Assembly: GCA_028286405.1 (NCBI GenBank)
Contig: JAQBRP010000008.1
Coordinates: 2,958 to 66,957 of the forward strand
DNA: 64,000 nucleotides
Direction: 5' to 3'
DNA from: Candidatus Saccharimonadota bacterium
GTDB taxonomy: Bacteria; Patescibacteriota; Saccharimonadia; Saccharimonadales; UBA4665
Made by a program: the position numbers and the translations under genes. How positions within the stretch are numbered: position 1 is the stretch's first letter; every line of letters starts with the position of its first letter. The notes below the pieces were generated by a model. The model did no database searches, was not told the DNA's origin, and worked only from the letters and a program-made list of their open reading frames with translations. Of the stretch, positions 8,540 through 42,412 are shown in pieces.

Positions 8540-8614
8540 TCCGGCTTAGCTCAGTGGTAGAGCGTCTCGCTGTTAACGAGAATGTCGCTGGTTCGAGCCC
8601 AGCAGCCGGAGCCA
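8540..8614 (+). tRNA. tRNA-Asn (anticodon GTT), CCA encoded
   Basis: Hand-folded cloverleaf: acceptor TCCGGCT/AGCCGGA, D arm GCTC/GAGC, anticodon stem TCTCG/CGAGA with loop CTGTTAA, T arm GCTGG-TTCGAGC-CCAGC; 75 nt. Confidence 0.92.
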
Positions 8615-8622
8615 AGCATAAG

Positions 8623-8651
8623 CACTTTGCGAAAGCAGAGTGTTTTTGTTT
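8623..8651 (+). terminator. intrinsic terminator after tRNA-Asn
   Basis: CACTTTGC-GAAA-GCAGAGTG hairpin followed by TTTTTGTTTT. Confidence 0.7.
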
Positions 8652-8742
8652 TAGATATACCCGTTGTTGTGAGCGTACCTCTCTATACGCCCAGGTATAA
8701 ACGGGGTAGCCGAATTACCGAATACCATGATATAACTGAGTC

Positions 8743-9144
8743 ATGAAATTCTTTGAGTGCCCGGTAGCAGCGCAGGATTTTTATAGCGTGCGCAAGCTGA
8801 CAAATGAGCTTGCAGAGGCCCCTACAGACGAAGAACGGGAATACTACTTTCTGGAAGGTGAAGAAGACAAATTTGCGCGGATCGGCTGCAGTGTGGGTAG
8901 TTGTTCTGTCCGAGCAATTGCATCAGTCCAGACTACCCGCTCAAGAATAGCCACTTTCTACGCTGAGAATCCAGGTGAGTGTATCCGCACCGAGGAAGAG
9001 AGAGCCTCGCTGGAATCTGACTTGCCGATACCTTACCTTCAGTCGTTAGCGACGCCTTCGGAAACTTCAAAACCAGTCTTGGGCTCTCCCAAAAAGGCTA
9101 AGTACTCAGGGGTACGGGCATTAATCTCAAAACTATTAACATAG
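8743..9144 (+). CDS. hypothetical protein
   Basis: 133-aa ORF with TGaTATAAC 6 nt before the ATG. No family recognised. Confidence 0.4.
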   Translation: MKFFECPVAAQDFYSVRKLTNELAEAPTDEEREYYFLEGEEDKFARIGCSVGSCSVRAIASVQTTRSRIATFYAENPGECIRTEEERASLESDLPIPYLQSLATPSETSKPVLGSPKKAKYSGVRALISKLLT

Positions 9145-9256
9145 TTGCTGCCATCATATTCACAGTTGCGAAGTTCGCCCACTAGGGGGAGCCAAAGTTA
9201 GAACCAAAATTACAGAGACGAAAGTCTCTGTTTTTATTTTGGGGTATGATGAGTCT

Positions 9257-9550
9257 ATGCTAATCATTTATAAGGTCTCGATTAAACACAACAAAATATC
9301 CGCATTCCAGAGACTAGCGGATAAAACACTCATCCCAGAAGCACTTAAGCTTTCTGGTTGCAAACTATTCTCTCTTTACCAGAATCTGAGCAATAAAAAT
9401 GAATTCATATTCCATGAAATCTGGGACACAGAAGAAAACGTTCATCAGTACAAGTTAAATCTTATTTCCAAGTTGGGGAAACCGCATCTAAACGAAGAAT
9501 TTCCTGCTTTCATGAACGATATGATTGAGACTGATGAAGATCTAGTTTAA
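9257..9550 (+). CDS. possible ABM-domain (antibiotic biosynthesis monooxygenase-like) protein
   Basis: ~97 aa with the F.FHEIW.tEE....H signature common in ABM/YgiN-like proteins. AT-rich. Start chosen at the ATG at 9257, with TATGAT 6 nt upstream. Confidence 0.45.
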   Translation: MLIIYKVSIKHNKISAFQRLADKTLIPEALKLSGCKLFSLYQNLSNKNEFIFHEIWDTEENVHQYKLNLISKLGKPHLNEEFPAFMNDMIETDEDLV

Positions 9551-9552
9551 TC

Positions 9553-9749
9553 GCAGTTATAACTTCCTCTACTGTAGTGAGCCAAAGTAAAAGACCCTCC
9601 ACAGGAGGGTCTTTTACTTTGTTTTCGGATGTTGGTCAAGGAACCAGATGCCATGGGCATTCTGGTTCGGTAGAGCGAGGACGCGCGCAGAAGCTAGCTT
9701 CGAGCACACCACAGCGGCAGAGCGTAGCGACCCAGCAGCCGGAGCCAAG
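9553..9749 (+). repeat. ~197-bp island repeat unit 1: 35-nt motif, terminator hairpin, second hairpin and decayed tRNA-Asn 3' part
   Basis: Aligns along its length with 10142-10336. It ends in CCCAGCAGCCGGAGCCAAG, an exact 19-nt copy of tRNA-Asn 8598-8616. GGTAGAGCG and TTCGAGC tRNA-like blocks lie inside. Confidence 0.8.
9587..9625 (+). terminator. intrinsic terminator
   Basis: GTAAAAGACCCTCC-ACA-GGAGGGTCTTTTAC hairpin followed by a T-rich tail. Confidence 0.7.
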
Positions 9750-9787
9750 TTTTTGACTAAATACCGCTTTTGTGATATTTTATTTTT

Positions 9788-10111
9788 ATGAATACGCCTG
9801 AAAAGACTACTACAATTGAACTTTGGAAAGACGAGAAGAAAATAGGCTTCAACGTTGAACCGCCTTTAAGCGATGACGAGCTGACTGCCCTAGAGTGGAC
9901 TGGAGCAGCTGAATATTTTTTTGCAGACCAGCAGCAAGAACCGCCAAGAACGGAATCGTGGGCATGGAGGCAAGACGCTCCAGAGTCACCAATACCTAAT
10001 ATCGACATGCATGATTTTGTAATACGGGCCTGGGCTCATCAAGTGCAAATGCTCCGTGAACTGCAAGGCCATGAAGTAGCCGTGGTCGACCGCCTTGATT
10101 CTGACGCATAG
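9788..10111 (+). CDS. hypothetical protein
   Basis: 107-aa acidic ORF lying between the two ~197-bp repeat units. Confidence 0.4.
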   Translation: MNTPEKTTTIELWKDEKKIGFNVEPPLSDDELTALEWTGAAEYFFADQQQEPPRTESWAWRQDAPESPIPNIDMHDFVIRAWAHQVQMLRELQGHEVAVVDRLDSDA

Positions 10112-10141
10112 CTTGAAATGCTAGTCGGGTCTAGCTTTATT

Positions 10142-10336
10142 GCAGTTATAACTTCCTCTATTGTGGTGAGCAAATGAAAAAGGCCTAGCAATGCTAGGCC
10201 TTTTTCATTTGTTTCGTCCGTTGGTCACAAGAACCAGATGCTTTGCATTCTGGTGCGGTAGAGCGAGGATGCGCGCAGAATCTAGTTTCGAGCACTACTT
10301 TGCGACAGGGCGAAGCGACCTAGCAACCGAAGCTAA
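10142..10336 (+). repeat. ~195-bp island repeat unit 2 (diverged copy of 9553-9749)
   Basis: Same order of 35-nt motif, terminator hairpin, AACCAGATGC/GCATTCTGG hairpin and GGTAGAGCGAGGA block. It ends in the degenerate tRNA end GCGACCTAGCAACCGAAGCTAA. Confidence 0.75.
10174..10214 (+). terminator. intrinsic terminator
   Basis: ATGAAAAAGGCCTAGCA-ATGC-TAGGCCTTTTTCAT hairpin followed by TTGTTT. Confidence 0.7.
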
Positions 10337-10360
10337 CTGAGCCTGAACCCTAAACCATGA

Positions 10361-11605
10361 TCATACCTTTTTTTGCTGAGACTTTAATTCATCATTCCAC
10401 ATGGCGTAGACCGGAATAAAAAACCCCATTTCTTCGGGTGAGGGGTAATCAACATTTTCTTCATCAAAAACGATTTGGCCGTCAACCCTGGTGAAAGCAG
10501 CTGTGATACCTAGACTTGTCCCATCTTTTCCTAGCATCATTAGACTAAGTGCCTCTTTCTTGTTTCTCATGCCGCCTATTTCTTTTCCTTCTTTAATTCT
10601 TTTATCCCACTTTTTTACATCTGTAATTGTCCACGTTTCGGCAATAAAAATGACTGCATCACCTGAGAGTTCATTAACGTATGCAGCAAGTTGATGAGAA
10701 AACAAAATTTTTTCTGACCTATCCCTAAAAACGGCCGCTAATGGATTGAACCCGGTCGACGTATGCACGAATGCCATCGATAGATAGCTTCCGTCCTTTT
10801 GGATCATAAACTTAGCAATTCTAAAAAGTGACTTAGCTGCCTCGTTAACATTTTCGCTTGAAATAGTCTCTGCAACCTCACCGTATCTTTCGCGAGCCAG
10901 CTGCACCATCTTGTCATCTCTTACGATCGGGACAATACTTCCTCCAACCGACTCACCTGATCTAAACTTGAACCTGGCAAAGCGAAATGAATCGTCGTAG
11001 CTTAAATCATTCTCGATATCGTTGCCAAGATTCAGCGGAGGACCCTGATAGCCGTCTTTTCTATCTAGGTATATCTCCAGGTCACTCACAAGCATACAAA
11101 GGAACTGAAAAACGTGAATTAAGACATGGATTAATTCATCCGATTTTCCTTCTACATCTACCCTGTACATTCTTTCAACCTCCATGGTTGCATATGACAG
11201 TTCTGGTTTATCTATAATTTGTTGTTTAGCATTCGCAATCACATCGTCCGTACTAGTCCTATAATCGTAATGTGCCTCGAAAATAACCCTTGCATAATCT
11301 GTCAACGTAATGAGTGAGGCGTAACTTTCTGAGGCAATTACATCTTCATGTACCACCTTGGTTCTTTTTGCGTGTAGCCACTTCATGTACGGATCGGCCT
11401 TCATGGTTTCTCGCCATGGCAGGTACCAAGTGTCAAAATTCGGGATTTCTTTTTTATTCGACTGAACTGCAAATGTGAGGTTACGGCACGCTTGAATGAG
11501 TGAGTGGGAATATGTGAAGAACCGCTCAGGGCTTTGATAGTTTTTAACCGCATCAACGAGCAAATAGTCTAGTTCTTTAATTTTATGCTCGAGGTTTCCA
11601 ACCAT
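10361..11605 (-). CDS. hypothetical protein (414 aa, AT-rich orphan)
   Basis: Long clean ORF, noticeably more AT-rich than the backbone. TGgTAATTT 6 nt before the ATG on the minus strand. No family recognised. Confidence 0.6.
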   Translation of the reverse strand: MVGNLEHKIKELDYLLVDAVKNYQSPERFFTYSHSLIQACRNLTFAVQSNKKEIPNFDTWYLPWRETMKADPYMKWLHAKRTKVVHEDVIASESYASLITLTDYARVIFEAHYDYRTSTDDVIANAKQQIIDKPELSYATMEVERMYRVDVEGKSDELIHVLIHVFQFLCMLVSDLEIYLDRKDGYQGPPLNLGNDIENDLSYDDSFRFARFKFRSGESVGGSIVPIVRDDKMVQLARERYGEVAETISSENVNEAAKSLFRIAKFMIQKDGSYLSMAFVHTSTGFNPLAAVFRDRSEKILFSHQLAAYVNELSGDAVIFIAETWTITDVKKWDKRIKEGKEIGGMRNKKEALSLMMLGKDGTSLGITAAFTRVDGQIVFDEENVDYPSPEEMGFFIPVYAMWNDELKSQQKKV

Positions 11606-11662
11606 GAATATAAATTACCACGATGCCAAAGGAACTTACAGTGAAACATGCTTAGCGCATGC

Positions 11663-11677
11663 TGATATAGTTAACCC
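11663..11677 (+). promoter_or_regulatory. extended -10 promoter directly abutting the start codon (leaderless type)
   Basis: TGaTATAGT followed by TAACCC, then the ATG at 11678. Confidence 0.5.
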
Positions 11678-12061
11678 ATGGCCCAAATCGACCAAACCCA
11701 CATAATTAACGCACCCATAGACAAGGTCTGGTGGGCGCTCACGACTGCCGAAGGCGCCGAACAATGGGGCGCTGGCCCCGCCAAAATGAACCCCACCGAC
11801 GGTGGTGAATTCAGTTACTGGAACGGCGACATTCACGGCACCAACACCGAAGTCATCCCCATGATGCTTCTAAAACAAGATTGGTACGGCCACGACGATC
11901 CGACCAAGCTCTACAAAGTCACTTTTAAATTCTTTTCGCCAAATACAACAACCACCGAGGTACACTTAACTCACAGCGGTGAGCACGACGACATCAAGAA
12001 GGACGAAGCCGACTGGCAAGACTACTACTTCGACCCGCTCAAGAAGGCACTGGAACGATAG
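11678..12061 (+). CDS. SRPBCC-domain protein (AHSA1/START-like)
   Basis: INAPIDKVW.ALT..E....W motif and ~127-aa size, typical of Aha1-like SRPBCC proteins. Confidence 0.75.
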   Translation: MAQIDQTHIINAPIDKVWWALTTAEGAEQWGAGPAKMNPTDGGEFSYWNGDIHGTNTEVIPMMLLKQDWYGHDDPTKLYKVTFKFFSPNTTTTEVHLTHSGEHDDIKKDEADWQDYYFDPLKKALER

Positions 12062-12089
12062 CCTAGGCGGGGGTGCGGTCTCAGCAGTT

Positions 12090-12104
12090 TGCTATAGTTA
12101 ACCC
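12090..12104 (+). promoter_or_regulatory. cassette promoter TTTGCTATAGTTAACCC (leaderless type)
   Basis: TGcTATAGT plus 6 nt, then the ATG at 12105. Confidence 0.5.
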
Positions 12105-12446
12105 ATGCAATACATCTTCCACGAACCAACCGACTACATCTTCAAGGACCGCGATGGCCACGATGGCAAATCATTCGGCACAAACAGCAAAACAAGCGGC
12201 CACCTGATTATTGAGTGTACCGACAAGCTAACCGTCGCCCTAACACAAAACGAAGTTGAGTTTAATTACTACGTCATAGCAGGCAATGGATATTTTATTC
12301 TGAACGACGAGAAGCAAGCCGTCAGCACTGGCGACCTAGTAGTAATACCGCCCAAAACAAAATACACCTTTGGCGGTCAGCTCAAAATGCTACTTATTCA
12401 GACATCACCGTGGTCTGCGGACCAGGAAACAGTTGAGCGACTCTAG
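12105..12446 (+). CDS. cupin-domain protein
   Basis: 113-aa beta-rich ORF with a G.GYF.....Q.V..GDLVVIPP..KY.F pattern resembling small cupins. Confidence 0.55.
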   Translation: MQYIFHEPTDYIFKDRDGHDGKSFGTNSKTSGHLIIECTDKLTVALTQNEVEFNYYVIAGNGYFILNDEKQAVSTGDLVVIPPKTKYTFGGQLKMLLIQTSPWSADQETVERL

Positions 12447-12519
12447 GCAGCTCATGATTATTTGGGCGTTCCTATGTTAGCCCGCGAGATACCTACAGCA
12501 GACCACTGCAACCAGGCTA

Positions 12520-13224
12520 TCACTCTGTAATTTCGCCAAAAAACTTTGTGGTGGCTATCTTACCAGAAGCGATAGCATATCTGTCTACCGGCCAGAACGG
12601 TAAAAGGCTAAGTTTTTTACCAGACTCCCTGGCATATAGCATCCATAAGAATGGATTAATACCTACCATGAACGGCACATCGCCTGGGGTGAATCCATCA
12701 GAAAATGCGGCGGCGTTTGCGACAGCGAGCACCGAAGCAGTGTAGCCCGCCCAAAATAAACTATTAATTTCTAGCGACTTCAAGGCTGCCTCAGAAAGGC
12801 CAGGTCGAATAGCCTTGTTAAGCAGTGTTGCCCTGGCACTTGGGGAGCGCACTTGGCGCACAAGGTCAGGGTACTGCTCGTCGAAGGTTGCACTATCCAT
12901 TTTTACGCTTGCCGTTTTTGCCGCTACGCCACCGCTCGACGACGCTCGCTTTTCCGCGCTTGCCGTTGAGCTGGCTGCAAGTGATCCGTCTTCATGTACG
13001 GAGCCGCTGAATATAGGCGTCAGGGAAGTGCTTGATTCACAGGTAATGCGCAGGACATCGGCGCTAATGAGACGTCTAACACCGTCTAGACCCCGTACGT
13101 TTACGCCTAGCCGCTCTTCGTCAAAGCCAACCGGCAGCCCAAGCGAGTCAATGCTAACTGTGTCAGTTAACTTAACGGCTTCTGGGAGTGCAACGAATCC
13201 TCGTGGCAGATCATGATTGGACAT
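12520..13224 (-). CDS. hypothetical membrane protein
   Basis: C-terminal hydrophobic helices. Start placed at the ATG at 13224 (TAATAT 7 nt upstream on the minus strand) rather than the TTG at 13260. Confidence 0.45.
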   Translation of the reverse strand: MSNHDLPRGFVALPEAVKLTDTVSIDSLGLPVGFDEERLGVNVRGLDGVRRLISADVLRITCESSTSLTPIFSGSVHEDGSLAASSTASAEKRASSSGGVAAKTASVKMDSATFDEQYPDLVRQVRSPSARATLLNKAIRPGLSEAALKSLEINSLFWAGYTASVLAVANAAAFSDGFTPGDVPFMVGINPFLWMLYARESGKKLSLLPFWPVDRYAIASGKIATTKFFGEITE

Positions 13225-13291
13225 TTTGCTGATATTATCGTCATTTGTACCACATTGCAAGCATGAGCACTCTGGTAGACCAATGTCTGTT

Positions 13292-13306
13292 TGCTATAGT
13301 TAGTCC
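13292..13306 (+). promoter_or_regulatory. cassette promoter TTTGCTATAGTTAGTCC (leaderless type)
   Basis: TGcTATAGT plus 6 nt, then the ATG at 13307. Confidence 0.5.
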
Positions 13307-13801
13307 ATGACAGATCGACTAAAGGCCTGGGGTGACAAGAAGATTATCCGCATAGCGTGCTGCTTCATTTTTAACGAAACAGGTGAGGTGTTACTATTGC
13401 AGCGCCATTCAGATGACCTCGGCGGTGGGAAGTGGGGAACGGCCGGTGGCCGTATTGAACATGGCGAAGAACCGAAGGCTGCAGTCATACGGGAAGTGCG
13501 TGAAGAGACAGGATTACAACTTGACGAGATTGAAGAGCTAGGCACACATGAGATTCGAATGCCACATGGGGCCGTACATATGACTAGTTTTAGGTCTATC
13601 ATCCAAGGCTCTGTTACTATCGTTATCGATCCCGAAGAGCACCACGAGTACAAATGGTTCGACATTAGTACTATAAAAACTGGTGATTATATTCTATGGG
13701 GTATCCCGACCATTCTGCACGATTTTGGACTGCTGGACGACTTTGATACCGATCCGACGTTAGCCGACGGAAGTCAGGCCGTTTTGTTGGGTTTGCTATA
13801 G
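13307..13801 (+). CDS. NUDIX hydrolase
   Basis: Nudix box G.W..AGGRIEHGEEP..AVIREVREETGL. Confidence 0.85.
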   Translation: MTDRLKAWGDKKIIRIACCFIFNETGEVLLLQRHSDDLGGGKWGTAGGRIEHGEEPKAAVIREVREETGLQLDEIEELGTHEIRMPHGAVHMTSFRSIIQGSVTIVIDPEEHHEYKWFDISTIKTGDYILWGIPTILHDFGLLDDFDTDPTLADGSQAVLLGLL

Positions 13802-13808
13802 TTAAGTT
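13794..13808 (+). promoter_or_regulatory. cassette promoter overlapping the upstream stop codon
   Basis: TGcTATAGT plus TAAGTT, then the ATG at 13809. The TAG inside TATAGT is the stop codon of the NUDIX gene. Confidence 0.5.
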
Positions 13809-14384
13809 ATGAGCAACGCAATCCTAGTCCCCGGCCGCCCAGATAAAGAAGAGCATTACGCCCCAGCCCTCCCCAGCAACAGTGAAGACCACTGGTTTAG
13901 CTGGCTCAAGCGCCAACTAATTCTAAAGGACATCCACGCAGTTTCAATAGAGCCGCCATTTCCATTCAGACCTCGATATAACGAATGGAAGAAAGAGTTT
14001 GAGCGCTTTGATATTACATCTGACACATTATTAGTTGGGCATAGCTGCGGCGGCGGATTCCTAGTACGCTACCTGAGCGAACACAAGGAATTGCAGGTTG
14101 GCAAAGTAGTGCTAGTTGCGCCTTGGATTAACCCCGACAACTACGAAGTGTCTGACACCGCCGACTTCTTCGAGTTCGACATCGACCCAGACTTTCCAAG
14201 CCGAACAAAAGGCGTATCGGTATTTATATCGAGTGACGATGATCCAAGTGTTGTTAAAACCGTCGAAATCCTAAAGGGTAAGGTGCACGATCTAGACATC
14301 CACCAGTATGCCGACAAAGGTCACTTCTGCCGAAACGATCTAGGAACCGATGAGTTCCCTGAACTACTGAGCACTTTGCTATAG
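13809..14384 (+). CDS. alpha/beta serine hydrolase (YdeN/RBBP9-like)
   Basis: ILVPG...HWFSWL start and LVGHSCGG nucleophile elbow; ~190 aa, as in YdeN-type esterases. Confidence 0.7.
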   Translation: MSNAILVPGRPDKEEHYAPALPSNSEDHWFSWLKRQLILKDIHAVSIEPPFPFRPRYNEWKKEFERFDITSDTLLVGHSCGGGFLVRYLSEHKELQVGKVVLVAPWINPDNYEVSDTADFFEFDIDPDFPSRTKGVSVFISSDDDPSVVKTVEILKGKVHDLDIHQYADKGHFCRNDLGTDEFPELLSTLL

Positions 14385-14391
14385 TTAACCC
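14377..14391 (+). promoter_or_regulatory. cassette promoter overlapping the upstream stop codon
   Basis: TGcTATAGT plus TAACCC, then the ATG at 14392. The TAG inside TATAGT terminates the hydrolase gene. Confidence 0.5.
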
Positions 14392-15270
14392 ATGAATGAA
14401 ATAGCTGTCCTCGACTACCGATTCCTGCCCGACACCAAAGCCGAAATTCAAGCGCTTGCCAGCAATGAAGTATTGTTCCCATGGGAACGCTGCCCAGAAG
14501 CCGAACGCATTACCCGCACAGGCACAGCCGACATAGCCCTCGTGACTCCCTGGGACATGATAGACACAACCTACTTAGACGCTTGCCCGCAACTCAAATA
14601 TGTTGGGCTATGCGGTACTTCCACCGCAAACATCGATTTGGACGAACTCGATCGGCGGGGCATTGCCTTTAGCAATATCGTCTCGGGCGACAAGGAGTCA
14701 GTGGCCGAGTTCTTTTTCATGCAGCTTGTAAGTCTGTCTCGAGGGCTAGGCGAATACCAGTGGAAGCCCGGCGAGCAACACGAACTCGTCGGACGCCGCA
14801 TTGGCATCATCGGTCTCGGAGCAGTCGGCAAAGCTATGGCGCACATGGCACTGGCATACAAAATGGATGTCGTTTATTTTAGCCCTCACCGTAAGCAGGA
14901 TTGGGAAGACAAAGGTATAGCGTACTTGGAAAAGAACGAGCTATTACAAACAAGCGAGATCGTTATGCTCTGCACCCCCACAAATGTCGAGGTGCTGGGC
15001 GAAGCCGAGTTTACGGCGATGAAGGCCGGAAGCATTCTCGTGCAAGCGTGTGGTGGCAATCCCTTTGATAAGCCGTCATTTTATAATTGGATAGCCCAGG
15101 ACGACAACTTCGCCCTGTTTGATATGTCAGCCAGTGAACAAAACTACCAAGCCTATCAAGATTTACCGCGAGTCATATTTTCCAGATCAGTAGCAGGTGA
15201 TACTTACGAGTCAAACGAACGCCGTGGCAAGCGAGTTGTCGAAAACTTGCACAACTACTTAAATTCATAA
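14392..15270 (+). CDS. D-isomer-specific 2-hydroxyacid dehydrogenase family protein (possibly catalytically degenerate)
   Basis: The NAD-binding motif GIIGLGAVGKAMA is present. Positions aligned with the catalytic GRG Arg and PH(I/V) His read CGG and SRSV. Confidence 0.7.
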   Translation: MNEIAVLDYRFLPDTKAEIQALASNEVLFPWERCPEAERITRTGTADIALVTPWDMIDTTYLDACPQLKYVGLCGTSTANIDLDELDRRGIAFSNIVSGDKESVAEFFFMQLVSLSRGLGEYQWKPGEQHELVGRRIGIIGLGAVGKAMAHMALAYKMDVVYFSPHRKQDWEDKGIAYLEKNELLQTSEIVMLCTPTNVEVLGEAEFTAMKAGSILVQACGGNPFDKPSFYNWIAQDDNFALFDMSASEQNYQAYQDLPRVIFSRSVAGDTYESNERRGKRVVENLHNYLNS

Positions 15271-15281
15271 TCAGACCTAGG

Positions 15282-15363
15282 AGTTACTGACCGTATTGTA
15301 GTGAGCCAAGAGGCTTATGCTTAAAAGACTTCTTCGGAAGTCTTTTTGTTATATAGTTAGCAT
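15282..15363 (+). repeat. cassette junction module J1: 35-nt motif ending GTGAGCCAAG, terminator and TATAGT promoter
   Basis: Related to 19549-19642 and 20316-20431. Terminator AAAAGACTTC-TTCG-GAAGTCTTTTT at 15323-15350; TATAGT at 15352-15357, 6 nt before the ATG at 15364. Confidence 0.7.
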
Positions 15364-15942
15364 ATGCAAACTTTCTGGCTCATCCTTGCGACGGTTGTTA
15401 CCGTTGGTTCAGTCATTCCATATGCACGCGACATCCTAAAGGGAAGTAGCCGTCCAAACATAGTATCCTGGATAACCTGGACGTTGCTTACCGGTATCGC
15501 AACAGCGGCTGCAATTAATGCTGGCGAATACACAACGGCCATATTCACTGGTTCAGCCGTGTTAGAAACGGCGATTATTGTTGTGCTGGGTTTAAGATAC
15601 GGTTATGTTAAATACACCCGCTTTGATGTTGTCTGCCAGGTGAGTGCAATTGTGGGCATCGTGTTATGGCAGCTCTTCGACTCGCCAACCGCGGGCGTAC
15701 TCGCGAGCGTCACGATTGACTTCATTGGCGCGCTACCAACGATTCGGCATTCATGGAAAATGCCCAGTGAAGAAACATGGTCCACCTACGCACTGGCAGG
15801 ACTTGGTGGAATATTTGCGATCTTCGCGTTAACATCCTACAACTGGGTCAGTCTAACTTACGCCGTTTATATCGTCATAATTAACATGCTTTTGTCGGCA
15901 ATCATTATTTACAAGATGCGATCAAGCCCCCAAATTTTCTAA
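15364..15942 (+). CDS. hypothetical polytopic membrane protein
   Basis: 192 aa with about six hydrophobic helices. Confidence 0.55.
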   Translation: MQTFWLILATVVTVGSVIPYARDILKGSSRPNIVSWITWTLLTGIATAAAINAGEYTTAIFTGSAVLETAIIVVLGLRYGYVKYTRFDVVCQVSAIVGIVLWQLFDSPTAGVLASVTIDFIGALPTIRHSWKMPSEETWSTYALAGLGGIFAIFALTSYNWVSLTYAVYIVIINMLLSAIIIYKMRSSPQIF

Positions 15943-15980
15943 GCTCGAGTAGCATTTGGTTCCAATCAATCCAATCGAGG

Positions 15981-15997
15981 GGAGCCAAGCATAAGCA
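15981..15997 (+). repeat. exact 17-nt direct repeat of the tRNA-Asn 3' end plus flank (att-like)
   Basis: GGAGCCAAGCATAAGCA is identical to 8608-8624. Confidence 0.8.
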
Positions 15998-16024
15998 TTA
16001 TGAGTAAGGGCAAAATATCTCTTT

Positions 16025-16041
16025 TGCTATAGTTAATGCAT
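16025..16041 (+). promoter_or_regulatory. cassette promoter TTTTGCTATAGTTAATGC
   Basis: TGcTATAGT upstream of the ATGs at 16036 and 16042. Confidence 0.45.
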
Positions 16042-16710
16042 ATGAGGCATTTATCGAAGAAAGCCACCTTTATACTGTCAGCTGTGCTTATTGTGGGCGG
16101 CCTAGGCATGCTAACATGGAGTGCGTTCTTACTTTTTGGGCAGCCTGGAGGAGCCCCAGCCAGCGACCAAACCACAGCGCGTGCTCCCTCAAGCCAAACC
16201 GAACCGTCCTCAATCCGGTCAAGCCCCGACGATATCTCTAACTATAAAGTCGCTTCCAGCCTACCAAAATTCATAACCATACAGTCAATTGGCGTTACAA
16301 AAACACGAATCAAACACCTAGGGCTAGCGGATAATAATCGAATTGCCGAACCGGACAATCTTTATGACACTGCCTGGTATACCGGAAGTTCTAAGCCGGG
16401 TGAGCAGGGAGCGATGTTTATTTTTGGTCACGTCTCGAGCTGGGAGGCTACTGGCATTTTTTATAATCTTAAGAACTTAAAGCCAGGAGATCGCATTACT
16501 ATTCAGCGTGGCGACGATCAGTTATTTCTCTACGAAGTAAGCTCAACTAAAACATACCCTGCCGACCAAGTAGATATGAACGCCGTGCTTGCACCCGTGA
16601 ACCCCAAAGTCCCCGGTCTTAATCTTATGACCTGTAGCGGAAAGGTTATAAAGGGAACAAACGATTTTAGTGAGCGGCTGGTAGTCTTTGCGAGCCTTGT
16701 AAAAAATTAA
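16042..16710 (+). CDS. class F-like sortase
   Basis: N-terminal TM anchor; TAWY...PGE.GA..IFGHV and LMTCSG (TLxTC-type catalytic Cys) motifs. The start could be 16036 or 16042. Confidence 0.75.
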   Translation: MRHLSKKATFILSAVLIVGGLGMLTWSAFLLFGQPGGAPASDQTTARAPSSQTEPSSIRSSPDDISNYKVASSLPKFITIQSIGVTKTRIKHLGLADNNRIAEPDNLYDTAWYTGSSKPGEQGAMFIFGHVSSWEATGIFYNLKNLKPGDRITIQRGDDQLFLYEVSSTKTYPADQVDMNAVLAPVNPKVPGLNLMTCSGKVIKGTNDFSERLVVFASLVKN

Positions 16711-16712
16711 TG

Positions 16713-17747
16713 TTAGTAGTGTTTACGCTGTTTTTTGTAAATTAGCCCCAACCCTGCGCCCATTGACACTATGCCAGTTAGCGCAATCGCCGTAGCAATG
16801 GGATCATGCTTACTAGGTGCGCCATGACCGGTTTTCGGGGCAATTATGGTTTGTCCTGCGCCACCGGATAAATTACCAGATGAATTACTGATGATATTTA
16901 GACCTCTTACGACGCCGATTTGGTGGGCCGTATTTTCTGTGAACCACATATTATTATCCGGGCCGGCGGTAATGTGAATCGGGCTGCTCATTGCAGTAGG
17001 CACACTATACTCGGTAATTGTACCGGAAGGGGTAATCTGGCCGATCTTATTACTAATGACTTCCGTGAACCAGACATTGCCGTCCGGGCCGGCGGCTATA
17101 CCGTACGGATAGCTCCCTGACGCAAGATCATACTCGGTAATCGTACCGCTCGTAGTGATTTTACCGATTTTATTGGTATCAGTCTCCGTAAACCACAGGT
17201 TGCCGTCCGGACCGGCGGTGATACCGCTTAACGAAATATTTGGACCAGGAACGAGATACTCGGTTATGGTACCTGTAGGCGTAATTTTTCCAATTTTGTT
17301 TGATACCTGCTCCGTAAACCACACGTTACCATCCGGGCCTGCTGCGAGAAAGGAGGGCAGGCTGTTTGACGTGGTGACAGTATATTCCGTAATCGTCCCG
17401 CTGGGTGTTATCTTACCAATTTTGTTAGGGATCTGCTCCGCAAACCACAGGTTGCCATCCGGGCCGGCGGTGATATTTTGTGTGCCACTAGTTGGACTAG
17501 GGATATCATATTGAGTTACCGCACCGCTGGTAGTAATCTTGCTAATCCTATTGCTATCGTTCTCTACATACCATAGGTTACCATCTGGGCCAGCAGCAAT
17601 TCCATCGGGCTCAGAAGTCGAAGACGGAAGCGTGTACTCAGATACTGTCACGGCAGCCAACACCGACGGAGCGGTGACGAAGGTGGCGAAAAGCATAGTT
17701 GCCACAAGAAAAGATCCACGTCTTATATATGCTCGTATATGACCCAT
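16713..17747 (-). CDS. secreted beta-propeller repeat protein (virginiamycin B lyase/Vgb-like repeats) with a C-terminal cell-wall sorting signal
   Basis: Signal peptide. About six tandem ~40-aa repeats (ITAGPDGNLWFTE..NKIGKITPSGTITEY). C-terminal APKTG, then a hydrophobic helix and a KKQRKHY tail. Confidence 0.7.
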   Translation of the reverse strand: MGHIRAYIRRGSFLVATMLFATFVTAPSVLAAVTVSEYTLPSSTSEPDGIAAGPDGNLWYVENDSNRISKITTSGAVTQYDIPSPTSGTQNITAGPDGNLWFAEQIPNKIGKITPSGTITEYTVTTSNSLPSFLAAGPDGNVWFTEQVSNKIGKITPTGTITEYLVPGPNISLSGITAGPDGNLWFTETDTNKIGKITTSGTITEYDLASGSYPYGIAAGPDGNVWFTEVISNKIGQITPSGTITEYSVPTAMSSPIHITAGPDNNMWFTENTAHQIGVVRGLNIISNSSGNLSGGAGQTIIAPKTGHGAPSKHDPIATAIALTGIVSMGAGLGLIYKKQRKHY

Positions 17748-17835
17748 GTCGGTTGTTTCCTTTTTAGCTTATGGTTTAAATATACTACAGTTTACTGATT
17801 CTATGTTCATATATGTCTCATCCAACCCCGTAAGC

Positions 17836-17861
17836 GGTTCGAGACCAGAAGCGGGAGCCAA
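17836..17861 (+). repeat. decayed tRNA-Asn 3'-half relic
   Basis: GGTTCGAGACCAGAAGCGGGAGCCAA compared with the tRNA sequence GGTTCGAGCCCAGCAGCCGGAGCCAA; same orientation as the tRNA. Confidence 0.65.
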
Positions 17862-17904
17862 CATTAGATTCAAGTTTACAGAGTTTAGGGCTAATGCTTT
17901 TATT

Positions 17905-18580
17905 TTAAACGCGAACGAGCTCAATTGCCTTGGCGGTACTGTTAACTGAGGGGAATGTAAAACTAAAGCCAACACCGTTTTCCAGTTCTCTTAGAATTGT
18001 GTCGGTATGCTCGATTTGCCGTAGGCTTCGCAACGGGCCTAGGCGGGCCATGCCTCCGGGTTTTAATACTCGCAGTATTTCTGAATAGCCGTCAACGTGT
18101 GCACCATTACTGCCGCCACAGTCATAAAGACATGTCGGAAACGCCCATGTAGATGTAACTCGGTCGAAGCTAGCATTACGGAACGGCAGCCTCTGTGCTA
18201 GTCCTGCGGCTGCGACACGACTTGCGACGTAGCTTGTGTAGCCCTCGCCCTCCATTTCCATAGTTTCTTCAATACCCGATAGAATACCGACTTGCTTTAT
18301 ACTCTTTTACATTAGACGAGTTGTAAGCCCAGTCGGCGAATTGAGGGTTTAAGTTTATGACCTTAGGCTTCTCCGAATCGTCTTCGAATAACGCGTGTAT
18401 AGAGCGCGCAATACCTTCAAAGCCGGATCCAATATCCAGCACCAGCTCTGTGTTTGCAAAAAAGTCTTTGCGCTCATTTGTACTCCAGTCGGCCATACCC
18501 ATGTCCCAGAATGGCGTCTCCAAGTCACCTGAAAAGACAGTCGGAGTTCTATAGGCAGCGGTGGCGGGATATTCGGACAT
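17905..18580 (-). pseudogene. class I SAM-dependent methyltransferase, disrupted (stop plus frameshift)
   Basis: The upstream ORF carries motif I (VLDIGSG). The downstream ORF carries LPF.NASFD and LRVLKPGG. They are separated by a TGA at 18269-18271 and lie in different frames. Confidence 0.55.
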
Positions 18581-18794
18581 TTTGATTAAAATACCATAAA
18601 TTAATACCTTTGTAAATTATGCCAGCGCCTCCTTGATTATGTGTAACCCGCGACAAAGACCAAGTACCCCAAATCATTGAAATCATCAAAGAAGTCCATC
18701 CATACGAAGAAGTCGTTATAGATGTCTATCCCTTGCGGCAGTTGTGACGTCCTTATGCTTGCAACCTAAGAACAAATATTCATACTTAGACCTA

Positions 18795-19046
18795 ATGATC
18801 GAAACTTCAAGGTTCCTAAGCCCCGACGATCGCCTAGAACACCACGGCGACCTCATGGAAGCCCTAATCCGTCAGAACGGCGGCGCAATACACATGAGTA
18901 AACTGTTATGCTCCGACGCACTCGGCAACCACATGACAGATGGGGATATCAAGGAAGCGTTCGGCCACGGGCTTAAAACCCTCCGCTTCGACTTTGAGCA
19001 GATCGATGCAGACGAGGCTGCGGTATTCCTTATAACCAATGACTAG
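18795..19046 (+). CDS. hypothetical protein
   Basis: Start placed at the ATG at 18795 (CATACT 8 nt upstream). No family recognised. Confidence 0.35.
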   Translation: MIETSRFLSPDDRLEHHGDLMEALIRQNGGAIHMSKLLCSDALGNHMTDGDIKEAFGHGLKTLRFDFEQIDADEAAVFLITND

Positions 19047-19483
19047 CTCGAATGCTCATCTCCATTCGGCTCAAACTCCACCGTCCACTCAATACCAAAT
19101 TTGTCTCTAAACATCCCAAAATACGTATCCCAGGGGCTATCGCCCATAGGCACTTCAATCGTTCCGCCTACAGTAAGTCCGTTGAATATGCTGTCAGCTT
19201 CTGGACGACTTTCGGCGTAGACCGATATTTTAGACCTGTTTTCATTTTCATTTACTGGACCCATACTTTCAGGAACATCATTGGCTATTAAAGTATTTCC
19301 ACCAATAGGCAACGTAATACGCATGATTTTATCTGCTTCGCTTTCTGGGACAGGGAACTCTGAACTTTCAAGATCTTTGAAGCGCACTATGCTTGCGAAC
19401 TCCCCACCAAACACCGATTTGTAAAAATTGAAGGCTTCTTCGGCATTTCCGTTGAAGTTAATGTAAGGATTGATAGTCGCCAT
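19043..19483 (-). CDS. VOC family protein (PhnB/glyoxalase-like)
   Basis: INPYINFNGNAEEAF.FYKSVFGGE N-terminus is typical of PhnB-like VOC proteins. Start placed at the ATG at 19483, which has an AAGGGGA Shine-Dalgarno. Confidence 0.75.
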   Translation of the reverse strand: MATINPYINFNGNAEEAFNFYKSVFGGEFASIVRFKDLESSEFPVPESEADKIMRITLPIGGNTLIANDVPESMGPVNENENRSKISVYAESRPEADSIFNGLTVGGTIEVPMGDSPWDTYFGMFRDKFGIEWTVEFEPNGDEHSS

Positions 19484-19548
19484 TAGATTATTCCCCTTAG
19501 TAAACATTTAGTTTCATTCCTATTTTAGCAAGCATATCTCGTTTTATC

Positions 19549-19642
19549 ACAGTTATAATTTCCTCTATCGTTGTGAGTCATTACGCTAATGCTTAAAAGA
19601 CTCCTGCTCCGCCGCTGTGCGAACGGAAGTCTTTTTGTTTTG
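19549..19642 (+). repeat. cassette junction module J2: 35-nt motif plus homologous terminator with an expanded loop
   Basis: ACAGTTATAATTTCCTCTATCGTTGTGAGTCA, then GCTTAAAAGACTCC...GGAAGTCTTTTTGTTTT. Confidence 0.65.
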
Positions 19643-19706
19643 ATTACGCTTGCACTCTTGCATCAAAAGCGTATAAATATTGACAATCTAACTGCAGAGG
19701 ATACAT

Positions 19707-20279
19707 ATGAGACGATTTGCCGAGTGCGATGCAGTACTCTCAGCTCCAACAGAAGGAATAAACGACTACCTAGCTCGGCTAAATGCTAACGAAGAGCACC
19801 CTGAACTATTGTTAGCGGTAGATGCAATAAAGGTTTTTGAAGGTGAACGCCAGGGCACCGGCAAATACTACGATGAAAACGGCCCTGGTAATGCGAGGTA
19901 CCTCGGAGACTTTACAGGTTGGGCTATGAAGCCTGTGCTTGAAGCCGTCTATAAGCCTGACTTTTCAAGTAGTGTAGTGCTCGGTTATGATGGAAGGCGC
20001 TTTAAATCCATCTGGCTATTAGGAGGTACGCTTAGTCTTAAGGGCGAGGTAGAGATAGGGGACGCTAATGATGAACTCCTAGAAGCATTGAATGACCCAG
20101 AAGGATTAGATGTAAGCACTATAAAGATGTATAAGCCACGTCGTGCGCGTCGCTTCGCGTCTGAGCCAGTTCTTATGGCATATGAAGAGAACAGGGTACA
20201 GAAGGAATTGTTCAACCCAGATATTGCACGGTATCCAAGGCTTGCCTTGTCTGGATTTCGTTCTCCCGGCGACGTCTAG
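19707..20279 (+). CDS. hypothetical protein
   Basis: 190-aa ORF with a GAGGA Shine-Dalgarno. No family recognised. Confidence 0.45.
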   Translation: MRRFAECDAVLSAPTEGINDYLARLNANEEHPELLLAVDAIKVFEGERQGTGKYYDENGPGNARYLGDFTGWAMKPVLEAVYKPDFSSSVVLGYDGRRFKSIWLLGGTLSLKGEVEIGDANDELLEALNDPEGLDVSTIKMYKPRRARRFASEPVLMAYEENRVQKELFNPDIARYPRLALSGFRSPGDV

Positions 20280-20315
20280 GATACGTCCAGACCCACCGTT
20301 AAATCTCGCTTTATT

Positions 20316-20431
20316 ACGGTTATGACTTCCCCTATCGTTGTGAGCCGAGCTGTACGCCAAAGCTAGTCCGAATGGTTCACCGGCCCAAAAAGACTTCTTA
20401 GGAAGTCTTTTTGTCTTGCTATAGTTAAGGG
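20316..20431 (+). repeat. cassette junction module J3: 35-nt motif, terminator and orphan TTGCTATAGTTAAG promoter
   Basis: ACGGTTATGACTTCCCCTATCGTTGTGAGCCGAG; terminator AAAAAGACTTC-TTAG-GAAGTCTTTTT at 20387-20414; TGcTATAGT at 20417-20425 with no ORF behind it. Confidence 0.65.
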
Positions 20432-20448
20432 CTGAAAAGGTCGAGATA

Positions 20449-20877
20449 TTATTCGTTAGATTGACAGTCTTGGCAGTACCCATCCACCTCGAACTGGTGA
20501 CGGCGTGGCTGAAAGCCGAACTTCTTTGCCACATCCTGGATAAACTCGTCAATGTGGGTTTCGTCTTCAATATCAATAACCTTGCCGCAGCGCAGGCAGC
20601 TCAGGTGGTGGTGGTGTCCGGTAAATTCATCTGACAGCTCGATTTTATACTTCCAGCCGATATAGATACGGTGGGCAATACCAAGTTTTTCAAACAGATC
20701 AATGTTTCGATAGATTGTCACGCGATCGACTTGGCCGTCGGCCTTCATTAAAATTTCATTAAGTGATTGCGGCTCAGAGTGAAGAAGAAGCCTGAAAGTA
20801 GCTTCACGAGCTTTGGTAATTTGGTGGCCTTGATTCTTCAGAATCAACCTAAGCTTGGCAAGTTCATCAATTGGCAT
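20449..20877 (-). CDS. Fur family transcriptional regulator (Fur/Zur/PerR)
   Basis: Winged-helix N-terminus, HHHHL.C..CG and C..C metal-site motifs. Confidence 0.85.
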   Translation of the reverse strand: MPIDELAKLRLILKNQGHQITKAREATFRLLLHSEPQSLNEILMKADGQVDRVTIYRNIDLFEKLGIAHRIYIGWKYKIELSDEFTGHHHHLSCLRCGKVIDIEDETHIDEFIQDVAKKFGFQPRRHQFEVDGYCQDCQSNE

Positions 20878-40979: not shown

Positions 40980-41092
40980 CTAAGCCGGTGGACGGCTCAT
41001 AATCTGTTATAAGCATAATTGCTTACCGGAACGTGGCTCAATTGTACTATACTTTACTATCAGAGAGCCACAAGTGGCAGAATCAAAATAGT

Positions 41093-42412
41093 ATGACCGA
41101 TCACCCCAACCCCACCGACAATAATTCCAAAAGCCAGTCCGATGGTTACGTCTTGCCGCGCAGCGATCCCAAGCTCGCGCCGTCAGCTGGTAGCAACGAA
41201 GCGGCCGACGTTATTCGCGATAAACTGGCCAAAATTTATGCCAGCGAACCAGACGCCCAAGCTGAAGAGCAAGAAGCCGAGACCGCCAAGCCACGCACTA
41301 AACACCAGCAGTTCATATACGAGCTCAATCACTCCGGCAAAGACTTAGCCCACATCCAAACCGAGTGGCACAACTACTACATTAATCTGCCCGACGATGA
41401 GAAACATGCCGTTTGGCAGGAGTTTTACGCCAGTAACGAAACGTCGCAGCACGGCACCCAGCAACTGCCGGCCGACACGCCCACCGACGCCGAAAAAATG
41501 GCCAGCATCCGCAGTCAGCTCGGTACCAACAGCGGGGTCACCAAAAAAGCTCGACAAGACAAGCGCAGTACCAGCGACATCCAAAAGAGCATTCACGACC
41601 AGTTTAGTGGTCGCCGCAAGCCAAGTGCCAAACAACATTTGCAGTCGCTGCTGTTTGGCCTGACTATTGGCACCGTAGCCGTCCTTATATTTCTGTTTGG
41701 TTTCTTTAACGAAGTTATAATTGCGCCGTTTATTCAGCCGGCCCGCACCAGCGCTGCCACGCCGCTGATTGTTACCAGCGACACCGTAGCACCATCGGCC
41801 ACACCACAGGTGATTATTCCTAAAATTAACGTCCAAATCCCGATTCAGTTCGACATTAACGCCACCGATGAAGCCACCATGCAAAAGGAACTAGAATCTG
41901 GCGTAGCGCATTATCCAACCACTTCCAACCCCGGACAAAACGGTAACAGTGCCTTCTTTGGCCACTCCAGCAACAACATCTTCAATAAAGGGAAATACAA
42001 GTTCGCCTTTGTGCTGCTGCATCAGCTGGTGCCGGGCGATACCTTTTACATCACCAAGGACAGTAAAGTTTACGCCTACAAGGTGTTCAACACCAAGATT
42101 GTTGAGCCGAATCAGGTCGAGGTACTCGACCCGGTTGAGGGGCACACCGCTACAGCCACGCTCATCACCTGTGACCCGCCAGGCACCAGTTTACGGCGTC
42201 TAGTAGTAACCGGTGACCAAATCAGCCCCGACGTCAGTAGCAACGCGGCGGTCAGCAGTAACACCGAAGTCACCGCTGAACCGCAGCTCACCGGCAACGG
42301 TCAAACTCTGTGGGGCCGCTTTATTAGCCAAGGAATCAGTAAAGCGGCCATCGTCGTGGCTGTAGTTATTACCTTTATCGTGGTGGTTCGCAAAACGCGA
42401 CCAGACTACTAA
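41093..42412 (+). CDS. sortase (class E-like) with a long N-terminal region and TM anchors
   Basis: FGHSSNNIF and ATLITCDPPGT (TLxTC) motifs. The start is uncertain: GTG at 41033 or ATG at 41093. Confidence 0.75.
   Translation: MTDHPNPTDNNSKSQSDGYVLPRSDPKLAPSAGSNEAADVIRDKLAKIYASEPDAQAEEQEAETAKPRTKHQQFIYELNHSGKDLAHIQTEWHNYYINLPDDEKHAVWQEFYASNETSQHGTQQLPADTPTDAEKMASIRSQLGTNSGVTKKARQDKRSTSDIQKSIHDQFSGRRKPSAKQHLQSLLFGLTIGTVAVLIFLFGFFNEVIIAPFIQPARTSAATPLIVTSDTVAPSATPQVIIPKINVQIPIQFDINATDEATMQKELESGVAHYPTTSNPGQNGNSAFFGHSSNNIFNKGKYKFAFVLLHQLVPGDTFYITKDSKVYAYKVFNTKIVEPNQVEVLDPVEGHTATATLITCDPPGTSLRRLVVTGDQISPDVSSNAAVSSNTEVTAEPQLTGNGQTLWGRFISQGISKAAIVVAVVITFIVVVRKTRPDY

Follow-up and report, generated by a model that had tools for sequence, protein, structure and literature searches.

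The 64,000-nt stretch of a Candidatus Saccharimonadota genome analyzed here (contig JAQBRP010000008.1, positions 2,958 to 66,957; referred to as the window) contains, between a tRNA-Asn gene and fur, approx. 11.8 kb of low-GC accessory DNA with approx. 20 short open reading frames (ORFs); this array of small genes, and the recombination system that may have assembled it, are the subject of this study. The tRNA-Asn(GTT) gene (8540-8614, + strand; detected by ARAGORN and, with 70.5 bits, by Rfam) is directly preceded by a conserved left flank, i.e., a gene encoding an ABC-F ATPase (6783-8447, + strand), and fur (20449-20877, - strand) represents the conserved right flank, as it also does for an interval of approx. 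1 kb in a related locus (L004). The GC content was 0.44 to 0.49 over most of the interval as compared to 0.51 to 0.57 in the flanks. The unrelated accessory genes that had been listed downstream of the tRNA in an initial annotation of this DNA were confirmed; they include genes for ABM, SRPBCC/AHSA1, cupin, NUDIX, Ser_hydrolase, 2-Hacid_dh and VOC proteins as well as a sortase with its substrate (a Vgb_lyase-like propeller with a C-terminal APKTG sorting signal) and a split methyltransferase. The same annotation reported that no recombinase or transposase ORF is present, and domain scans of the 64-kb window agreed, as no recombinase or transposase domain was found in any window ORF of at least 200 aa.

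Several junctions in the interval carry a recurrent motif of 35 nt, for which five positions had been proposed. With a strong copy defined as a match to a 29-nt pattern with no more than 3 mismatches (0 expected in shuffled sequences), strong copies were found at 9555, 10144 and 19551; the fourth copy, at 20318, is weaker (6 mismatches) and the fifth, at 15282, is truncated. On the minus strand the motif reads TGG CTC ACN ACN ATA GAG GAA GTT ATA ACT ..., which translates into W L T T I E E V I T (V/A)(I/V)(K/R) x D L with a stop codon a few codons further on. A metagenome scan with the motif yielded 81 loci, all of which were conserved up to ...GTGAGCCA and unrelated right after it. Among 78 unique sites, third codon positions were the most variable (e.g., the entropies at positions 1, 2 and 3 of codon 12 were 0.52, 0.20 and 1.42 bits, respectively), and entropy increased to approx. 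1.8 to 1.9 bits (near-random) directly past the TGG codon. Because variation is concentrated at third codon positions, we consider the motif to be coding on the minus strand, and the proteins described next identify it as the C-terminal tail native to a large serine recombinase (LSR).

This tail (tail1) is contiguous with LSR C-terminal sequence in locus L116 and in proteins P0122, P0132, P0136 and P0138, and it forms the end of the full-length LSRs P0293 and P0314 (locus L141). A second tail (tail2), with the pattern WLP(L/A)V(D/E)xLRN..., ends the full-length LSRs P0274 (locus L142) and P0300, and also marks the far end (attR) of an island in locus L001 as well as positions 9165-9194 of the window. 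One extra match to a tail pattern falls within a gene for a histidine kinase (49314) and is taken here as a chance match. Overall, the window contains seven orphan LSR tails, which are confined to 9165-20347, and three tRNA-end copies, all in one orientation.

The corresponding enzyme was found in a close relative. In L001, the first gene after tRNA-Asn (11760-13238, - strand) encodes a protein of 492 aa that we classified as an LSR because it contains Resolvase, Recombinase and zinc-ribbon domains (PF00239, PF07508 and PF13408 [Zn_ribbon_recom]). The final 13 codons of this gene are read from the reverse strand of tRNA-Asn, so that the ORF ends inside the tRNA gene. The order in L001 is thus tRNA-Asn, the overlapping minus-strand LSR gene, 9.3 kb of cargo, tail2 with GAGCCA, a gene-less block (X block, see below) and the ancestral post-tRNA sequence. 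When the L001 LSR was used as a tblastn query, it matched only the 13 codons overlapping the tRNA in the window, i.e., no LSR remnant of this kind was detected there.

The LSR is a member of an abundant family with 1983 homologues at E ≤ 1 × 10-20. Nearly all of the best 120 homologues have the same domains, and approx. 100 of these 120 end in W-L followed by the reverse-translated T arm and acceptor end of a tRNA (DSNQRP-like; modal length 492 aa) and therefore represent the integrated state. LSR C-terminal remnants were also found to adjoin tRNA-Asn in L002, L006 and L009. As some members of the family end in native tails and others in tRNA-derived tails, the attachment site must lie inside the LSR gene. 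The sequence GAGCCA, which at 8609-8614 forms the last six bases of tRNA-Asn (the end of the acceptor stem, the discriminator base and CCA), is the recombination core that is common to the tRNA and to the junctions of the array.

The initial annotation had concluded from the absence of a recognizable recombinase that the mechanism was possibly a non-classical one. This conclusion is not supported, as the motif is the 3' coding end of an LSR gene, an LSR gene of the same family adjoins tRNA-Asn in L001, and tandem islands of this type have a precedent at ssrA (see below); the "missing" integrase is thus identified through its footprints, and the mechanism is of a known kind.

No second Resolvase-domain gene, i.e., no partner of the CcrA or DsiA type, was present beside the LSR gene in the Pfam lists of L001, L141 and L142. 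Elements of the staphylococcal cassette chromosome (SCC) that carry CcrC likewise have no partner recombinase. L142, a contig of 5,936 bp, carries the full-length LSR with native tail2 beside a gene for a REP_ORF2-G2P rolling-circle replication protein and may represent an element of this type in a free, plasmid-like state; neither L142 nor L141 has overlapping ends that would indicate circularity. LSR genes or remnants were also observed beside an HSP20 gene, with no recognizable tRNA, in L139/L140 (approx. 9454-10375) and in L099 (flipped; 680-2744). As the native tail1 is retained in the chromosomal locus L139, remnants in the attP form exist in chromosomes too.

Comparisons of homologous loci, which were retrieved through the ABC-F protein, identified the region after tRNA-Asn as a variable hot spot. 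Upstream synteny (ATP synthase ... SmpB, ABC-F, tRNA-Asn) is kept in the relatives. The DNA after tRNA-Asn is unrelated among L001, L002, L004 and the window. L001 (ABC-F 89% identical) carries UvrD, CHAT and DUF4365 genes after the tRNA, with island genes at 15501-20820; L002 (88%) carries genes for a reverse transcriptase (RVT_1) and a helix-turn-helix protein at 12913-14221, a deaminase and a zeta-toxin-like kinase; and L004 (82%) has only a kinase gene and a NUDIX gene in the approx. 1 kb between tRNA-Asn and fur. The cargo of the islands in L001 and L002 looks defence-related. A AGCATAAGCACTTTGCG-hairpin located directly after the tRNA in L004 and in the window lies further downstream in L002 (4.8 kb) and in L001 (9.5 kb), and the displaced post-tRNA sequence follows GAGCCA in both cases. 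These differences in post-tRNA DNA and the displacement of the ancestral sequence support the earlier proposal of repeated site-specific insertion at one tRNA gene with modules stacking outward. In relatives with ABC-F identities of 69% or less, tRNA-Asn is not located directly after the ABC-F gene; it lies approx. 3 kb downstream in L036 (69%), and none was found in the others. Contigs of several related metagenome-assembled genomes stop just past ABC-F or the tRNA, as in L003/L005 (contig end at 11782) and in L006 (a contig of 2,258 bp); short-read assemblies thus seem to be interrupted at the hot spot, which is not surprising for DNA that is repeated or heterogeneous.

The layout suggested for the window, in which small modules with mostly one gene each are arranged as in an integron, proved to be real and common in Saccharibacteria. 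At least 9 other loci contained arrays in which tRNA-Asn is followed by tails, and the median distance from core to core was approx. 0.9 kb. Modules in other Saccharibacteria are approx. 0.3 to 5 kb long and mostly contain a single gene; a terminator comes first, usually followed by an extended -10 leaderless promoter, and a tail with GAGCCA comes last. Several genes of the window have homologues in such arrays; homologues of the dehydrogenase (81% aa identity) and of the Ser hydrolase lie between the tRNA and tail1 in L068 and between tRNA-Asn and tail2 in L007, respectively, a homologue of the 192-aa membrane protein (orf192) follows a tail1 core in L120, and a VOC homologue is present in L010.

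The initial annotation had proposed to check whether cassettes are gained and lost precisely at the boundaries of the motif; this was the case in metagenome contigs, with breaks at GAGCCA. In 7 pairs of loci the sequences were 90-100% identical to the left of GAGCCA and unrelated to the right, and in 8 pairs the converse was observed. A module of 860 bp, which consists of a terminator, a gene (RibD_C-like as judged by reading its sequence without a domain scan) and tail1 and lacks an LSR gene, was 95-96% identical in L079, L107, L110 and L138; homology stops at the cores on both sides, and the left neighbour is the tRNA in L110 and tail2 in L079. Moreover, L093 and L095 were 99.9-100% identical but for an insert of 1,506 bp in L095, which contains three ORFs, encodes no recombinase and is flanked by GAGCCA at a tail1 core. 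The sequences to the left of the two GAGCCA copies of this insert, GGTGAGCCA and CTCGAGCCA, differ, so that only 6 nt are common to both ends. The evidence from L093/L095 and from the 860-bp cassette represents natural variation, not an experiment.

In the window itself, at least 10 junctions follow tRNA-Asn, all in the same orientation and of the GAGCCA type (with some cores mutated). Directly after the tRNA lies a terminator block (AGCATAAGCAC-hairpin-TTTTTG; R type A, 8615-8652, + strand), followed by the cargo of the first module, an orphan ORF of 133 aa (8743-9144, + strand), and by a tail2 remnant (WLPLVGELRN..., 9165-9194, - strand) that ends in the core GAGCCA at 9189-9194. The second module begins with a terminator hairpin (9195-9238) before its cargo gene, which encodes the ABM-domain protein (9239-9550, + strand), and ends in the first copy of the 35-nt motif, a tail1 remnant (WLTTVEEVITAIKLDL..., 9540-9584, - strand) with the core GAGCCA at 9579-9584. 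After a first X block (9585-9749, + strand), the third module carries an orphan ORF of 107 aa (9788-10111, + strand) and a tail1 remnant (10129-10173, - strand) in which the core is mutated to GAGCAA, the W codon now being TTG. A second, more decayed X block (10174-10337, + strand) is followed by an ORF of 414 aa on the minus strand (10361-11605). The position of this ORF, to the right of a core and on the minus strand, is the one where LSR genes sit in the relatives. As a candidate for a hidden recombinase it was rejected, since it had no Pfam, NCBIfam or PADLOC match, its sole match being PHROG 19262 (unknown function, E = 1.4 × 10-11).

The central part of the interval (11678-15270, + strand) is a run of five genes with their own promoters, which encode the SRPBCC protein (11678-12061), the cupin (12105-12446), the NUDIX protein (13307-13801), the Ser hydrolase (13809-14384) and the 2-hydroxyacid dehydrogenase (14392-15270), all on the plus strand. 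Junctions within this run are reduced to a core remnant plus promoter, e.g., GAGCACTTTGCTATAGTT at 14369. The approx. 0.86 kb at 12447-13306 contains no credible gene (its only ORFs, one of 246 aa with a TTG start on the minus strand and one of 133 aa on the plus strand, had no family matches) and is probably a decayed module.

The run ends in a truncated tail1 (15282-15308, - strand), which has a 27-nt internal deletion as compared to its L068 homologue and retains the core GAGCCA at 15303-15308. The left end of the next module (R type D, 15309-15363, + strand) consists of GCTTATGCTT, a terminator hairpin at 15323-15347 and a TATAGT promoter, and its cargo is orf192 (15364-15942, + strand). 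A degenerate tail2-like remnant (15958-15997; WLPSIGLIGT in a minus-strand reading) with the core GAGCCA at 15982-15987 and a decayed R type A precedes the sortase gene (16036-16710, + strand) and the gene for the Vgb_lyase/NHL-like beta-propeller (16713-17747, - strand), which has a signal peptide and the C-terminal APKTG; the propeller blades are encoded by five to six direct repeats of 123-126 nt at 16935-17604. A remnant of the 3' third of the tRNA (GGTTCGAGACCAGAAGCGGGAGCCA, 17836-17861, + strand; core at 17855-17860) separates these genes from the methyltransferase, which is split on the minus strand into 18269-18580, with the S-adenosylmethionine-binding VLDIGSG, and 17905-18261, with the C-terminal part of Methyltransf_11; the gene at 17905-18580 is a pseudogene.

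The remaining part comprises an ORF of 100 aa (orf100, 18744-19046, + strand), the VOC/glyoxalase gene (19043-19507, - strand; 76% identical to the L010 gene) and a tail1 remnant (19536-19580, - strand) with the core mutated to GAGTCA, the W codon now being a stop. The last module (19581-20279, + strand) has an R type D terminator at approx. 19585-19640 and an ORF of 190 aa (orf190, 19707-20279). It is followed by the most decayed tail1 remnant (RLTTIGEVITVIKRDL, 20303-20347, - strand), with the core GAGCCG at 20342-20347, and by a terminal R type D (20348-20430, + strand) that consists of a terminator (20387-20412) and a gene-less orphan TTGCTATAGTTAAG promoter. The cores at 9189, 9579 and 9742 are intact and those at 10168, 19575 and 20342 are mutated, with the two most distal junctions mutated most; by sequence this pattern fits an outward ageing of the array, as a rough gradient only.

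Of the tRNA-end copies proposed to partition the region, the exact 19-nt copy CCCAGCAGCCGGAGCCAAG at 9731-9749 and the exact 17-nt copy GGAGCCAAGCATAAGCA at 15981-15997 were confirmed. Among four decayed copies, those at 10315-10336 and 17836-17861 were also supported; the other two, at 15301-15310 and 20341-20349, correspond only to the GAGCC(A/G) core at the end of the motif. The sequence GGAGCCAA occurs five times in the 64 kb, always on the plus strand and within 8608-17861. Some of the tRNA-end copies belong to the X blocks, i.e., gene-less segments of 135-170 bp that start with a terminator at the core and end with 15-29 nt of the resident tRNA 3' end. X blocks were present in at least 12 loci, including L001 (21077-21254), L010 (14038-14207) and L078 (3272-3460). 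In the window, the first X block contains a terminator hairpin, a conserved stretch of approx. 110 nt and the 19-nt tRNA copy, and the second ends in the decayed tRNA 3'-end copy at 10315-10337.

The X block resembles the 3' third of tRNA-Asn broken in the T loop. No tRNA was detected in it by ARAGORN and no family by Rfam, and one small hairpin was found to covary by RNAalifold; a long-range helix predicted from a single-sequence fold (z = -2.5) was absent from the alignment fold. The X block was therefore not accepted as a pseudo-tRNA or known RNA, as both searches were blank and RNAalifold supported the small hairpin only. It was also rejected as an extension of the LSR tail on the minus strand, as the frames, compared by eye, differ between the window, L001 and L010. 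A mini-insert of 135 bp in L002 was considered as a close homologue of the window X block and dismissed because of weak similarity. By analogy with Dehalococcoides, X blocks may be relics of a second insertion system that acts in the T loop; alternatively, they may represent a small RNA or a protein-binding site. In L036 (6957-7163), a tandem pair of units with the X-block hairpin motif GCGCGCAGAAGCTTGCTTCGAGCAC was observed with no tRNA end nearby.

The terminator hairpins reported at 15323, 19595-19640 and 20387 were confirmed and are related to one another. A conserved promoter had been reported to abut each start codon; TTGCTATAGTTA does occur six times on the plus strand, 6-8 nt before an ATG at five of these positions, but the copy at 20416 is gene-less. 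Within the 64-kb window, TTGCTATAGTTA is confined to 12089-20427 (0.27 occurrences expected). Promoters of the type TGnTATA(A/G)T-N6-8-ATG were also found outside the interval, at housekeeping genes (31791, 46658 and 61441), and a TGnTATAGT-type promoter follows the tRNA terminator in L004. Thus, the exact 12-mer is specific to the island, but the promoter type occurs genome-wide and is therefore a lineage feature, with near-consensus copies in the modules. Placement of TGnTATAGT 6-8 nt before ATG implies leaderless transcripts, and the sequence data suggest that such transcripts are usual in this organism.

Taken together, these data lead us to propose, with a probability of approx. 0.78, that the interval is an accretion array generated by a family of LSRs that insert at the 3' end of tRNA-Asn. 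The sequence comparisons show that the LSR gene of these elements runs toward the attachment site on the opposite strand, with the crossover core GAGCCA inside the gene as TGG-CTC (W-L). In the free form the gene continues into its native tail of 16-45 codons (tail1, TTIEEVITxIKxDL; tail2, PxVxxLRN...). After insertion, the LSR body abuts the tRNA and reads into it, yielding tails such as WLRLLGSNQRHSR, and the native tail is stranded at the far end of the insert beside a second GAGCCA. In the proposed mechanism, each incoming module would recombine at the GAGCCA of the tRNA and push earlier modules toward fur; each module may start with a terminator because on insertion it becomes the sequence after the tRNA. 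Modules without an LSR gene would be moved by an LSR that a different element of the cell provides in trans, which parallels the behaviour of cis-mobilizable elements and of SCC cassettes without ccr. The distal junctions in this metagenome-assembled genome would later have decayed, with mutated cores, a truncated tail and collapsed junctions. As the window contains no recombinase gene, we regard the array as a partly decayed record of LSR-type insertions of enzyme-less modules. A recombinase acting in trans, which the initial annotation gave as one alternative, is the reading that we favour.

Several observations weigh against this accretion by an LSR family. Neither an LSR gene nor a fragment of one is present in the 64-kb window, and LSR activity in this organism is thus only inferred. 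Canonical LSRs require both half-sites and recombine only attP with attB. The right half-sites of the modules without LSR (terminator types A-D) are unlike the half-site on the LSR gene side; given the attP x attB rule, the textbook mechanism does not account for a trans-mobilization of such modules. The genes of 11678-15270 have no intact cores between them, and their modular origin rests on core remnants and on homologues elsewhere. X blocks share 17-29 nt with the tRNA as compared to the 6-nt core, and may point to a second, different insertion system. Finally, the two units of motif plus X block (9541-9749 and 10130-10336) could in part represent a local duplication.

An extension of the LSR-based reading is that Saccharibacteria carry a serine-recombinase counterpart of the integron, which we put forward tentatively and with somewhat more doubt than belief. 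Under this model, the CCA end of tRNA-Asn would serve as docking site, the combination of tail, GAGCCA and terminator would represent the cassette site, and an LSR acting in trans would shuttle mostly single-gene cassettes that bring their own promoters into and out of the array, so that genome-reduced episymbionts would gain a dedicated exchange system; the swap of tails upon insertion would switch the activity or stability of the enzyme. The LSR may here alternate between reactions of the attL x attR type and of the attP x attB type.

The best of the competing explanations is that the interval is purely a graveyard, in which each junction represents a complete LSR island that was later deleted down to one or a few genes and a tail, and modules without LSR were never mobile. 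Short LSR C-terminal remnants (76-190 aa) are indeed plentiful, as 82 of 82 matches were short and further remnants were found in L002, L006, L009 and L116; the decayed cores and tails of the window and the deletion-prone nature of reduced genomes of the candidate phyla radiation (CPR) are consistent with such a history as well. However, the strains L093 and L095 differ by an LSR-less insert of 1.5 kb that is flanked by GAGCCA alone, and the LSR-less 860-bp cassette occurs between cores in four different contexts. Moreover, modules carry a terminator right after the core, and random deletion would not repeat such starts. In approx. 430 kb of motif-bearing contigs, approx. 90 tails were found as compared to one complete LSR gene (L099). 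Overall, the junction data favour movement of LSR-less modules through GAGCCA cores over a simple decay of full islands, and we consider the graveyard explanation unlikely, at about one chance in four.

Homologous recombination is a less plausible source of the array. Junctions of approx. 100 bp (tail, core and terminator) could provide homology for RecA-mediated shuffling, duplication and uptake; the junction blocks are long and 74-95% identical, and the two motif-plus-X units of the window resemble a tandem duplication. Breaks nevertheless occur exactly after GAGCCA even without homology between the partner flanks, and the two ends of the L095 insert have only 6 nt in common, which makes this explanation improbable. 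Even less probable is that the region derives from degraded islands of tyrosine integrases, or from a prophage, at the tRNA gene, with the 17-19-nt tRNA-end repeats as att sites. The X blocks do end in copies of 17-29 nt of the tRNA 3' end that are broken in the T loop, as is usual where such integrases have inserted; these long repeats are nevertheless limited to X blocks, and most junctions have only GAGCCA (6-7 nt) in common with the tRNA. Neither the window nor the 13 loci with annotated called genes (according to their Pfam lists) contained a tyrosine recombinase, phage structural genes are absent, and the recombinase present in L001 (at the tRNA) and in L099 is an LSR. A true integron, or a CALIN (an attC cluster without integrase), is highly improbable, even though the array consists of short units that mostly contain one gene and share a recurrent junction element, with no integrase close by. 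The junction element is a serine-recombinase coding remnant with codon-phase conservation and not an attC palindrome (no attC model was applied). A TGnTATAGT box of its own is present before most genes, several genes are on the opposite strand and there is no common Pc, the docking site is a tRNA end and no IntI is encoded in the window.

By analogy, the closest precedent for the array is the group of ssrA islands in Dehalococcoides, which are arranged in tandem downstream of a single-copy RNA gene (transfer-messenger RNA) with a tRNA-like 3' end and are bounded by the gene itself or by direct repeats of the gene's 3' end (McMurdie et al. 2011, PMC3146451). In these islands, a reverse-strand gene for a CcrB-like LSR lies by attL with the 3' end of the ORF always overlapping attL or the RNA gene, a short conserved motif is located just upstream of each repeat, and 15 islands without an integration module have been proposed to be cis-mobilizable (PMC3146451). 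The features of LSR tandem islands encountered here include the LSR domains (in relatives only), the 3' overlap with the target, tandem GAGCCA junctions and members without recombinase. There are also differences. The Dehalococcoides islands insert in the T loop and have a repeat of 20 bp, whereas here the target is tRNA-Asn with the junction at the terminal GAGCCA; they carry the small serine recombinase DsiA and a six-gene integration module, neither of which was seen here, where apparently one recombinase acts alone; and they are multi-gene islands, whereas most of the modules described here comprise one gene (0.3-5 kb) and a leaderless promoter of its own. Unlike in the Dehalococcoides account, the far-end motif can here be read as the native C-terminal tail of the recombinase. 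The organisms also belong to different phyla, with the array described here found in Saccharibacteria. No description of this system was found in the searched literature on Saccharibacteria or Patescibacteria.

Other mobile systems share some of these features. An experimentally studied analogue is provided by SCC and SCCmec, and by pseudo-SCC elements without ccr, at staphylococcal rlmH (orfX). As proposed for the array, LSRs insert elements where a housekeeping gene ends (at its 3' side), tandem composites form between short direct repeats, and Ccr acting in trans moves cassettes without recombinase. In SCC, however, the target is protein-coding, the enzymes are CcrA/CcrB pairs or CcrC, the att site lies outside the recombinase gene and the elements are tens of kb long. 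Integrative and conjugative elements and their cis-mobilizable derivatives are similar in that elements without integrase keep their att sites and stack with integrase-bearing ones at one site, but differ in having tyrosine integrases, long att repeats and large elements. The array shares with integrons an ordered set of small cassettes, one docking site by a fixed anchor and an excess of recombinase-less cassettes over recombinase genes; it differs in using a serine recombinase, a junction of coding remnant, 6-nt core and terminator, individual promoters and docking at a tRNA end. Examples of attP inside a gene include the SSV1-type archaeal integrases, int of the Myxococcus phage Mx8 and the integration-dependent immunity of mycobacteriophages, in which, as here, integration alters the C-terminus of the gene that spans attP; these systems involve tyrosine integrases or repressors, whereas the gene considered here encodes a serine recombinase.

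Genomes of Saccharibacteria, and of the CPR in general, are tiny, and the gain and loss of accessory genes in these bacteria are poorly understood. Our data point to one hot spot, from tRNA-Asn to fur, that is serviced by one abundant LSR family and in which small modules, each equipped with a promoter and a terminator, accumulate in stacks and are exchanged. For annotation, these results imply that what looks like a conserved "intergenic motif" at the border of an island can represent the coding end that was cut off from a recombinase gene; such severed tails reveal att sites, the polarity of insertion and the recombinase family even without the gene for the enzyme. LSRs with a very short, defined core at a universal tRNA end may be useful as integration tools. 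The recombination of LSR-less modules with unrelated right half-sites, which falls outside the standard attP x attB model, represents a puzzle. Outside the island, a second sortase-domain gene was observed at 41033-42412, beside a gene for a PEGA-domain protein (42409-43884, - strand).

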